From assembly GCA_963785725.1 (NCBI GenBank), contig CAWAWS010000016.1:1-64000 (forward strand): DNA of 64,000 nt, given 5' to 3'. The position numbers were made by a program. Origin of the DNA: an uncultured delta proteobacterium (GTDB taxonomy: Bacteria; Myxococcota_A; Polyangia; Palsa-1104). Of this stretch, positions 22,101 to 25,100 are shown piece after piece (within the stretch, counting starts at the first letter, position 1; each line of letters starts with the position of its first letter).

Positions 22101-25100
22101 AACGCTCGGGGCAACCATGGAGTGATATTTCCATCAGCCCCATGAGTGATAAAAATATCACCAAGCGGTCAGTGGCGCTTGTCATTCGCGCGCTGGTGAT
22201 AGATTTATCACTAGCGAACGACTTTGAGCAGGCGGGCGCGGGTCGCCGGCAGCGGATCGGGCGCGTCGAGCGGCTCCACGACAATCGCGAACGCGCCGTT
22301 GTCGAAGGGCGTGCCCGGCGCGCGCTCGGTGCGGACGAGCCGTTCGCGCAGCTGCCGGCGCGCCAACGTGCGCGCGCGAAAGTGACAATACGGGTTGTTG
22401 CCGGGGCGGCCGAAGAGCGAGTGCGCCGTGAACGTGCAGCCGCCTTTGCAGACCTCGGCGAACGAGCAGGTGCGGCAAAAGCCCCACAAATCGTCGACCG
22501 TGCGTTCGCGGTTGAAGGCGATGGCGCTCGTGTCGTCGTTCCAGATCGTGGCCAGGTCGCGCTCGCGTAAGTTGCCGCCGACGTAATGTTTCGTCTGCAG
22601 CGACGGGCAACCTTTGACGGCGCCGTCGGACTCGATGCCCATGACGTAGCGGCCGGCCTGGCAGCCTTGCCAATGCTCGTCGCCGCTGGCGTCGGGCGAG
22701 CGCAGGCGGCCCTCTTCGGGCCCGAAATAGCCCAAGTTGTTGCCGGGCATCACGAGGATGCCGTCGGCGAAGGCGCGCTCTTTGAGCTGCGCGAGGCGTG
22801 GCACGAGGTCGAGCAAGTCCCACGGCTGCAAGAGCATGTCGGGGCGATCGGCGGCGCGACCGAGCGGCACCGTCAGCTGCACCTGCCACGACGAGATGCC
22901 GAGCGAACGCAGCTGATCGTAGAGCGGCTCGAGATCGTCGCGATTGAGGCGATTGACGTTGGTGTTCGCCGCCGTGCGAATGCCGGCGCGGCGCAGATGG
23001 CCGAGCGCGGCGACGGCGGCGTCGAACCCGCCCGGCGTCGCGCGCTGGAGGTCGTGGCTGGGCCGCAGGCCGTCGATGCTCACCGACGCCAAGTAGAGGC
23101 CGGCGGACGCCATCTTCGTCGCCATCGCGGCGTCGAGGCGGCGTCCGCCGGTGGTCATCGTCGGGCGAATGCCGGCGGCTTTGAGCGCGGCGATGATGTC
23201 GAGAAAGCCCGCGTGCAAGTAGGCTTCACCGCCGATGAGCACGACCTCTTTGGCGCGCATTTGCCGCAGCTCGCCGACGACGCGCAAGGCCTCCGCCGTC
23301 GACAGCTCGCCGTCGCGCGCGTCGCCGGCGCGCGAGCCACAGTGCGTGCACAGCTGGTCGCAGGCGAGCGTCAGCTCCCACACGACGTACGCCGGCCGAT
23401 AGTCGTTGCCGACGACCTGCAGGCGGCGATGAACGCGCGCGCCGGCCACGCCTATTGTCCGCCGTCGGGATTGCCGAGGCCGGCGTCGGGATCGTGCGCG
23501 ACCACGGGCGTCATATCGACGGGCACGGACATGTCGGGCGCGGGCGGCTCGAGCTCGCGGCAGCCGTTCTTGTCGCTGACGCAGGGACTGCCGTAGCAGG
23601 CCATGAGCGTCATCGACATGGTGCCGAGGCCGATGAAGCCGAGTATCTTGAAGAGGCGGCGGCTGATGACGCTCGGTCCCTTGGCGGCGCAGTTGGGGCA
23701 ATGCGACGCGGACGCGATCATGAAGCCCGAGCAGTGACGGCAGCGATTCATTAGTTTCATGTGCGGTTGGATCCTCCGCGGCGCTGTATAGCAAGCGAAG
23801 GGCCACGCGAATTCGCGAGCAGTTACGCCGAATCGACGGCGCGTGTGTGGCGTGGGCGTTCACAAGCAGGCGGGCCGCGACAGGGCTGTCGTTGTTCGCG
23901 CGTCGGGCGCTGCGGCGCCCAAAAGGCCGGCGGCGGCGTGCTCATCGGCGCGAGGTCGGGATGCCGATCGGCGGTGTCGCATTGTTGGCGCCGAACCCGC
24001 GCGGCGTCGCGTCGCGGCAGGATCGGTAGCGCGCGGTCAATGCGCGAGCGCCTGTCGCGGCAGCGCCGTGCGGTGGTTGGTCGGCCGGCGGGCCGCGCGG
24101 CCTACGCGGCGTGCACGACGCGCGGCGCCTCGCCGTAATAGTCGGCGATGTCGTCGCGGCCGATGCTGGCGATGTAACCGTCGGGACGAATGAGCACGCG
24201 CGCGCCCGCCTTCGTCACCAGCAATGTCGCGTGTGGCCCGCGCAGCCGATCGAACAGGCGCGTCCCATCGGGCAGCCGCGCATCGGGCATGCGGTCGCCC
24301 GGCTGGAGCTTGCCGAGCGGCGCGCCCGTCGACAGCGCGCTGCCGCGATAGTGCAGCGCCAGCTGGTTCGTCGCGTCACCGCGGCGAATCGAGCGCGACT
24401 GATGCAGCTGCTTCGTCAGTCCGAGCACCGCCGCGGCGATGGGCAGTCGCTCCGCCTCGTAGCTGTCGAGCAGCGTCGCCGTCGCCCCGCGAAGCACCGC
24501 CGCCAACTTCCAGCCGAGATTATAGGCATCCTGCACGCCGGTATTGAGCCCTTGGCCGCCCTGCGGTGGATGCACGTGCGCGGCGTCGCCGGCGAGGAAC
24601 ACCCGCCCGACGCGATAGCGCTCGACCATGCGCACCTGCGGCCGATAGACCGAGCTCCAGCTGACGCGCGCGACGTCGTAGCCCGTCGTTTCGTACACTG
24701 TACGCTCGATGCGATGCTCGGCCGCCGCCGGCGCGGCGAGCTGAAACTGCCGCGTCCCCGGCAGCGGGCACAGCGACAGCACGCCGCCTTTCGCCAGCGG
24801 CCACACGTGCCAATCCCGGCGATCGAGCCCCTCGACCTCGACGTCGCCGACGAGCTGCGGCTTCGACGGCAGCGCCTCGCCGGAGAAGCGCTCGCCCAGC
24901 GTCTTGCGCACGAAGCTGTGGCCGCCGTCGCAGCCGACGACGTACTCGGCGCGCAGCGTCTCGCCGTCGGCCAGCGTCACCGCGACGCCGTCATCATCTT
25001 GGCGCAACGCCGTGAGCGTCGTGCCCTGCTCCACCGCGCCGCCCAGCTGCGCCAGCCGCGCCCGCAGGATCTCCTCGGTGCGCCACTGCGGCACCATCCA

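Follow-up and report, generated by a model that had tools for sequence, protein, structure and literature searches.

A splicease-family radical SAM enzyme and its zinc-ribbon, putatively lipoprotein partner in Myxococcota

Introduction

What would a splicease-like radical SAM enzyme modify when its neighbor is a small protein that carries a zinc ribbon, a hydrophobic helix, and a lipobox? The question is raised by a two-gene locus in the window, i.e., the 64,000-nucleotide stretch of contig CAWAWS010000016.1 (GCA_963785725.1) that was analyzed here from an uncultured delta proteobacterium. According to the available passages of the 2022 review PMC9811515, spliceases remove all of the tyrosine except C1 at an X-Y-G motif and join C1 to X, and the native spliceotide products were still unknown at that time.

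Organization of the locus

The enzyme gene (22211..23449, minus strand; GC3 0.89) starts with GTG and encodes a 412-aa radical SAM/SPASM protein of the splicease family without a C-terminal zinc ribbon. Its radical SAM cluster motif CxxxCxxC (C30, C34, and C37; 23339..23362, minus strand) is invariant in 119 homologs, and a SPASM domain with auxiliary-cluster cysteines spans residues 263-355 (22385..22663, minus strand; TIGR04085, 48.1 bits with a cut-off of 27; PF13186). A 412-aa protein from an independent assembly (P0001) is 98% identical to it. The partner gene, which encodes the presumed substrate of 102 aa (23452..23760, minus strand; GC3 0.87), lies upstream, and only 2 nt separate its stop codon from the enzyme's GTG. 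The GGAGG located 12 nt before the partner ATG (23773..23777, minus strand) may serve as a ribosome-binding site. No NCBIfam or Pfam family matches the partner above cut-off, in keeping with the first-pass annotation, which had found no NCBIfam model for these substrates.

The partner begins with a zinc ribbon, C7-x2-C10-x10-C21-P-x-C24 (23689..23742, minus strand), which is predicted to bind zinc from its motif and to act as a docking handle. It continues with a basic linker and a hydrophobic h-region of 16 uncharged residues (residues 39-54; 23599..23646, minus strand), whose sequence pattern ends in the lipobox T-L-M-A. Then follow Cys55-Tyr56-Gly57 (23590..23598, minus strand; TGC TAC GGC on that strand) and an acidic, low-complexity cargo tail with two further cysteines, the pair C60 and C67 (23455..23589, minus strand). 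As judged from the sequence, the lipobox Cys55 doubles as the X residue of the putative XYG splice motif.

A second locus of the same genome, on contig C39, comprises an enzyme 65.5% identical to the window enzyme and a 98-aa partner (453268-453564) built on the same plan. A search of the 8.9-Mb genome with a partner profile gave two strong full-length matches (E 8e-18 and 7e-10), each adjoining one of the two enzymes, while the weaker matches (E 3e-5 and beyond) are zinc ribbons without the lipobox-YG part. Coordinates and sequence thus bear out the earlier statement that both loci pair an enzyme with a zinc-ribbon, helix, lipobox, and YG protein. The further statement that C-Y-G sits at the lipobox stands for the window partner (TLMAC-YG) but not for the C39 partner, which reads AAGC-DSTTVVT-HYG, with H-Y-G, Tyr at +10, and the YG nine residues further on. 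A gene lgt at 35898-36575 of the window was set aside as a coincidence, being one of eight lgt matches in a genome that also encodes lspA (two matches). One RNA run contained relatives only as contig fragments.

Phylogenetic position of the enzyme

The best NCBIfam models for the window enzyme are TIGR04103 (451.8 bits, cut-off 725) and TIGR03913 (403 bits, cut-off 591.75), both under cut-off as had been noted before, followed by TIGR04133 (135 bits, cut-off 425). Membership in type I as defined by TIGR04103 is ruled out by the score and by a partner that is not Nif11. The match to TIGR03913, the model of the GDL-type maturases, which we take to be the 'type III splicease' with splicease activity, stops at position 396 of 477 and includes no tail. 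An enzyme of Rheinheimera aquimaris, a species with a demonstrated splicease, is likewise below the TIGR04103 cut-off (626.6 versus 725); sub-cut scores are therefore no objection to splicease kinship, and mean only that no model covers the clade of the window enzyme.

At least 120 more distant loci, 80 of them with full flanks, were added by a motif scan, and they include cyanobacteria with Nif11-YG precursors, R. aquimaris with a RasA-like L-Y-G peptide, and GDL-type systems. The window enzyme is 44-50% identical to the cyanobacterial/Rheinheimera group, 39-49% to the GDL-type enzymes, and 28-29% to an archaeal outgroup. As the first two groups share an average of 47% identity, it is about as far from each of them as they are from each other. 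In an IQ-TREE phylogeny of 55 of the 120 tree rows, the family clade that unites it with the cyanobacterial and Rheinheimera enzymes and the clade that holds both enzymes of this genome were each supported at 99%; the order of the subclades was unresolved there, while FastTree (120 rows) joined the clade to the type I/II group with support 1.0. Of 119 columns common to both splicease groups, 100 are kept in the window enzyme. Together with the CxxxCxxC motif and the SPASM domain, these columns and the tree support the splicease kinship that had been proposed, and by these sequence comparisons the window enzyme is a splicease-family member in a clade of its own inside the family. Several of the 19 differing columns are clade-wide (H79, G81, F82, and F340), so the chemistry could differ; the changes at D31 and R198 are found in distant zinc-ribbon clades as well. 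A search among the sequences of solved structures found no solved splicease and no like complex, and the closest match was SkfB (E 9e-15).

Pairing of enzyme and partner

To describe the neighborhood, 110 enzyme loci were used, namely the best 80 of 123 from one search and 30 from phylum genomes. At least one partner was found at 96 of them, a broader basis than the 25 of 30 loci reported before, and the 117 partner rows obtained, which hold a few near-duplicates and the window's own partner, are distributed among upstream tandem (53), divergent (39), and downstream (25) placements. Ten of the 14 empty loci were followed up: three end within 110 nt upstream, four have a C-Y-G partner about 0.6 kb past the fetched flank according to coordinates, and three have a partner elsewhere in the genome.

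Across 301 phylum genomes, the enzyme occurred in 81, the partner in 61, and both in 57, counts in which kin are not independent and for which the partner profile was partly built from the same genomes. The ratio of the earlier count (41 of 151 genomes with the enzyme) therefore holds, and the proposed pairing is upheld by the enzyme being present in 57 of the 61 partner-positive genomes. Only 4 of the 220 enzyme-negative genomes gave a partner match, and these were weaker (E 1e-9 to 8e-7). No match at E<=1e-6 was obtained in 24 of the 81 enzyme genomes by this insensitive search, in which 19 candidates were scored per genome and the C39 partner was missed too.

In some genomes the partners far outnumber the enzymes (11 to 3, 10 to 1), and the five orphan partners checked, all distant from any enzyme, still read A-C-Y-G. 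No conserved third gene was detected at the 110 loci after Arg-rich frames and frames shorter than 110 aa had been filtered out; the commonest neighbor family, Ser/Thr kinases, occurs at 11 of them. The pair is also present in Sorangium cellulosum So ce56 (locus L036). A search for longer or fused partner forms gave two weak matches, and matches to the system in the ESM Atlas were confined to Myxococcota clusters without names. Enzyme and partner almost certainly form a dedicated pair.

The YG motif and the lipobox

Partners of enzymes at least 57% identical to the window enzyme show Cys-Tyr-Gly in 80 of 90 cases, while those of more distant enzymes do so in 8 of 27, the remainder being truncated or having YG as far as about 200 residues away. 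On these sequences, C-Y-G is the rule in one clade only, and at one of the two loci in this genome. YG itself is present in 114 of the 117 rows. Even in the 25 partners that lack C-Y-G, 37 of the 39 tyrosines after the lipobox precede Gly, with a Gly frequency of 0.20. Of the 113 partners scored, 88 have Tyr at +2, as against 1 of the 446 conventional lipoprotein-like ORFs in the genome. Excision of tyramine (C8H9NO) at YG, which would give an alpha-keto-beta-amide, is the probable reaction.

All four ribbon cysteines are invariant in 101 partners. A lipobox pattern, written as a regular expression after the PROSITE rule, was matched in 110 of the 113 partners scored (86 of 89 close, 24 of 24 distant); four of the 117 rows had been dropped for a missing ribbon, lipobox, or tail. 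The uncharged run ahead of the lipobox has a median of 16 residues in these 113 partners, and the linker holds about three basic against less than one acidic residue. The lipobox Cys lies at residue 43-73, outside the usual range of about 15-35 from the start, because of the zinc ribbon ahead; a folded ribbon in front of the helix is unusual for a signal peptide, as is a Cys that comes so much later than usual. Tat export as a rule was rejected, since the strict Tat motif is present in 1 of the 113 partners.

Three tests were available to separate the lipobox from the YG motif in these sequences, i.e., retention of the Cys without C-Y-G, cysteine parity, and the rarity of Tyr at +2. In the 25 partners without C-Y-G, the Cys still ends the helix, and +2 is G, S, T, A, or E. 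Of the distinct C-Y-G partners, 14 have no cysteine after the anchor Cys, and in all of the other 73 the cysteines there are even in number, a count inflated by the relatedness of the partners. In this genome, the number is even in 266 of 375 lipoprotein-like ORFs and in 812 of 1814 generic long ORFs. Such parity would agree with cargo cysteines that pair as disulfides outside the cell while the anchor Cys stays free, and lends indirect support to the putative diacylglyceryl-Cys and LspA cleavage of the partner. The cargo is variable and reaches 450 aa, and in relatives it often consists of MopE-type or DUF4215 disulfide repeats: of the 42 longer partners scanned (48 listed), 18 matched MopE-type and 7 matched DUF4215 repeats at E<=0.001. 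The lipoprotein-like anatomy described previously is upheld by the lipobox pattern and by the cysteine parity with its controls, and the partner is, with good likelihood, a true lipoprotein.

The zinc ribbon as a predicted docking handle

The modelled enzyme-partner complex scored 0.78, against 0.00 for the best of three controls. In calibration, 116 of 157 solved pairs reached the mark for this score, as did 2 of 215 mismatched ones, figures that apply only roughly to alignments of our own. The model runs agree in at least 69% of contacts, with a partner pLDDT of at least 62. Ribbon residues 2-24 contact enzyme residues 242-252, 258-261, 329-333, and 357-361, with Phe13 as the top contact, and partner residues 50-58 (M-T-L-M-A-C-Y-G-S) lie in the barrel, touching Y21, N162, Q189, and N237 among others. 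The barrel residues that touch the site (Y21, V23, T99, S122, N162, Q189, N237, and P282) match the type I/II group. The model supports binding of the partner to the enzyme, and suggests that the zinc ribbon is likely the docking handle.

The partner profile also matched the C-terminus of GDL-type enzymes, 19 of which end in a ribbon and a helix. This tail is part of the TIGR03913 model, and is predicted to fold (pLDDT 84-92) after a flexible linker. A ribbon tail is absent from every enzyme of the first 110 loci whose length allowed scoring. In the sample examined, the ribbon is thus clearly either on the partner or on the enzyme tail, never on both. Partners and tails share C-x2-C-x10-C-P-x-C, a Leu at -3, an aromatic residue or His at +6, and an aliphatic residue at +7. 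A position score trained on the partners with the cysteines excluded gave the GDL tails a median of +2.9. The 37 further ribbon-like motifs in this genome had a median of -25.1 and all stayed below the tail median, with the best genuine ribbons, at +0.7, coming near. The hhalign probabilities were 97.4% for partner versus tail and 97.3-97.4% for partner versus four ordinary ribbons and did not discriminate, so that the case for ribbon homology is carried by the position score, which is weaker, and by complementarity. Within the docking site, His259 is common to both partner groups and the GDL type, with Phe in type I/II, and Tyr329 is common to the distant partner group and the GDL type, with Glu in type I/II, although the numbers are small. 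Common ancestry and a common site are likely for the partner ribbon and the GDL tail ribbon.

Previous work (PMC11414181) showed that PlpY or a leader helix activates the enzyme either on the substrate or fused to the enzyme C-terminus. The two placements of the ribbon echo this activation in trans or by C-terminal fusion.

Proposed pathway and alternatives

We lean slightly towards a two-component splicease that acts on a lipoprotein precursor, with tyramine excised in the cytoplasm and the keto-beta-cysteine lipidated afterwards, both on one molecule. In the cytoplasm, the zinc ribbon would dock on the enzyme, taking the place of PlpY or the leader helix of other spliceases, and the TLMAC-YG segment would enter the barrel, as in the model. 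With Cys55 as X, the splicease rule would yield an alpha-keto-beta-cysteine. The Fe-S enzyme would have to work ahead of export, and the passages available from PMC12636315 describe cytoplasmic RiPP modification that can precede lipidation and keep pace with lipoprotein export. After export, Lgt would lipidate the Cys55 thiol and LspA would cut off the ribbon and the helix, as the anatomy suggests, and the cargo would form its disulfides outside. The product of Lgt, LspA, and Lnt would be a lipid-anchored protein with the keto-amide directly on the lipid-bearing first residue (+1); in partners with a distant YG, such as that of C39, the keto-amide would come further out on the stalk. As a guess, such a group might sit at the membrane surface as an electrophile and capture serine or cysteine hydrolases of the envelope, or it might join the cargo to its anchor by a chemically labile bond. 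Alpha-keto-amides are cleaved by peroxide, and could therefore act as a release link. Keto-amides also inhibit serine and cysteine proteases according to PMC11626197, and we would guess that one so near the membrane reaches only membrane-bound hydrolases. A joint reading can be put forward only tentatively and with considerable doubt, namely an S-diacylglyceryl alpha-keto-beta-cysteine N-terminus that serves as a membrane-flush warhead or cargo-releasing link, combined with a ribbon handle carried on the substrate here and on the enzyme tail in GDL-type systems, and using the same site in trans or in cis.

The main weak point of the favored pathway is that a carbonyl in place of the +2 residue could block Lgt, LspA, or Lnt. 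Lgt and LspA read sites around the lipobox Cys, and the splice would take out the +2 residue beside these sites, with an effect that can be presumed. A partner that is spliced but unlipidated, being either an uncleaved single-pass membrane protein with the ribbon inside and the keto-amide outside, or a protein for which splicing and lipidation are alternative fates and the enzyme switches the anchor off, would also suit the very long folded N-region with its Cys at 43-73. However, the helix still ends in the Cys where YG moves off (+2 = G/S/T/A/E), and the even-cysteine rule leaves this Cys unpaired; both observations indicate selection that keeps the lipobox Cys free, and we regard an unlipidated product as rather unlikely. 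Another chemistry on the partner, such as a Cys-Tyr cross-link, a thioether, or a backbone cleavage at Tyr that frees the cargo, is suggested by the clade-specific changes at otherwise fixed enzyme columns and by X being nearly always Cys in this clade, and many SPASM enzymes form thioethers. However, the C39 enzyme also has H79, G81, F82, and F340 while its partner reads H-Y-G, which indicates that the changes do not depend on Cys. In ten partners of the close clade X is not Cys, and the barrel residues that touch the site are those of the type I/II group, so that a different reaction appears unlikely.

An ordinary RiPP, with ribbon and helix as the leader, a protease that frees a soluble keto-amide peptide, and a coincidental lipobox, would agree with the leader and core of other spliceotides (PMC11414181). 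It is nevertheless very improbable in view of the lipobox pattern in 110 of 113 partners, a cargo that reaches 450 aa and contains extracellular repeats, and 110 loci at which no recurring peptidase or exporter was found. Hardly any credit is given to the idea that a zinc-ribbon membrane protein lies beside an orphan enzyme by chance. The 14 of 110 loci without a partner inside the fetched flank speak for it, but in 3 of these the sequence stops within 110 nt upstream, 4 have the partner about 0.6 kb beyond, and 3 have it elsewhere; moreover, the pair persists in tandem, divergent, and downstream arrangements, and chance is strongly disfavored by the phylum co-occurrence and the modelled complex.

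Comparison with known systems

Type I (PlpX/PlpY/PlpA, and PcpXYA of Pleurocapsa; TIGR04103) shares with the window system the rSAM/SPASM fold and motifs and the XYG target, and the 44-50% identity refers to the group with cyanobacterial Nif11-partner enzymes, not to PlpX itself. Unlike type I, the window locus shows neither a PlpY gene nor a Nif11 leader, has a partner of zinc-ribbon lipoprotein type with Cys instead of Met or Leu as X, and belongs to a separate clade below the TIGR04103 cut-off. GDL-type maturases (39-49% identity) have the C-x2-C-x10-C-P-x-C ribbon in common with the window system, but in them it forms the C-terminal domain of the enzyme itself (19 enzymes), with soluble helical peptides as substrates, whereas here the ribbon is on the substrate and the enzyme stops short, scoring under 591.75. 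The Bacteroidota pair TIGR04133/TIGR04134 likewise combines an rSAM/SPASM enzyme with a putative lipoprotein, as its model name states, and TIGR04134 has a YG motif; however, the window enzyme reaches 135 of the 425 bits required, and TIGR04134 matched neither the window partner nor 26 other partner N-termini.

Type II (RhaX/RhaA = RasX/RasA, R. aquimaris) is also a two-component system in which the substrate N-terminus binds the enzyme, as modelled here, and the window enzyme is 44% identical to the R. aquimaris enzyme of locus L150. The neighbor of the latter has L-Y-G and two Cys as described for RasA, which is from another strain and probably its ortholog. RhaA has a PlpY-like leader helix according to PMC11414181, in contrast to the zinc ribbon, membrane helix, and lipobox of the present partner. 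DAG-RiPPs (DybA and NedA), as far as described in the available passages of PMC12636315, resemble the window system in combining a cytoplasmic modifying enzyme with the general Lgt/LspA/Lnt route, but use MNIO enzymes, ordinary signal peptides, and a modified site well away from the anchor. The main text of that paper contains none of the words rSAM, radical, and splice.

Relation to earlier reports and significance

Literature searches found no link between spliceases and lipoproteins, within a body of papers outside which lay the 2022 splicease survey (Scott et al., Chem). The available passages of PMC11002830, PMC11626197, PMC9811515, PMC10849128, and PMC10533398 name no zinc-ribbon, lipoprotein, or C-Y-G substrate, and a lipoprotein N-terminus with alpha-keto-beta-cysteine was not found in the papers searched. 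According to PMC10849128, the 2022 survey screened reference proteomes for YG-rich neighbors and found 189 genera; since So ce56 has the pair, the enzyme clade is probably in its data set. On balance, the enzyme clade has probably been named in print, and the lipoprotein and tail-ribbon points are less likely to have been. In the portion of the PMC11414181 supplement available, PlpY is aligned with type II, III, and V leaders, which are called PlpY-like, and type IV is never named; that omission would fit, as a guess, if the window clade were a ribbon-led type IV.

The two-gene unit is common in myxobacteria, and its probable product is a membrane-anchored protein whose anchor point carries a reactive keto-amide. 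The ribbon hints at uses in protein splicing, either as a short portable tag or as a constitutive fusion, comparable with the leader-helix fusions of PMC11414181. If cultured Sorangium, Polyangium, or Pyxidicoccus makes such a membrane-tethered product, it could be recovered from the native host. If the reading is true, the radical backbone splicing seen in small peptides would act on the anchor residue of envelope lipoproteins, such lipoproteins would be present in about a quarter of the sampled phylum genomes, and RiPP-lipoprotein hybrids would be extended from MNIO to radical SAM enzymes, with a new form of lipoprotein N-terminus.

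Contig end and neighbouring genes

The contig end carries an imperfect fold-back (positions 1-17041), in which one arm, 918-8059, matches the inverted stretch 8917-16067 at 91% identity, while a second stretch, 1-885, pairs with 16119-17041 at 87%. The murA- and hisD-like genes in this region are broken and share only 52-55% identity with the genome's own copies on contig C7, and the tetranucleotide composition of the region is a poorer match to the genome. It is probably a long-read chimera or a contaminant, with an alphaproteobacterial look. The fold-back ends 5 kb from the splicease-family enzyme and its partner, and the finding of this pair is unaffected by it.

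Elsewhere in the window, an lgt gene, one of eight lgt matches genome-wide, is located at 35898-36575, 12 kb from the pair. As well, two tandem lipoprotein-like genes (16943-20025) possess Gly-rich linkers and domains that, judged by eye, look like glycoside hydrolases.

Variant enzymes and putative substrates

Among the loci gathered for comparison, the deep-branching enzyme of a Myxococcota MAG (L145) ends in a run of acidic YG repeats and is possibly an enzyme-substrate fusion. The Bacteroidota enzymes of L168 and L171 (Flavobacterium, Mucilaginibacter) bear a C-terminal zinc ribbon, and at both loci a methyltransferase-like gene comes after the enzyme; the flanking DNA yielded no YG precursor.

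Splicease-family neighbours at L114 (a deltaproteobacterial MAG; several YG are present) and L141 (a Selenomonadaceae MAG) have a lipobox without a zinc ribbon, and therefore lipoprotein-type substrates may have more than one origin. A Planctomycetia partner (L163, from a MAG) has a zinc ribbon flanked on both sides by YG sites, and also has a membrane helix that lacks a lipobox Cys. The partner subtype of L100, L269, and L270 terminates in P-P-Y-G-C-V-F-P, with its sole YG close to the C-terminus of a long stalk.

Finally, four phylum genomes (G285, G300, G187, and G120) encode 8-11 partner-like genes, in some as tandem arrays, versus one to three enzymes, which suggests that the expanded partner sets are substrates served in trans.
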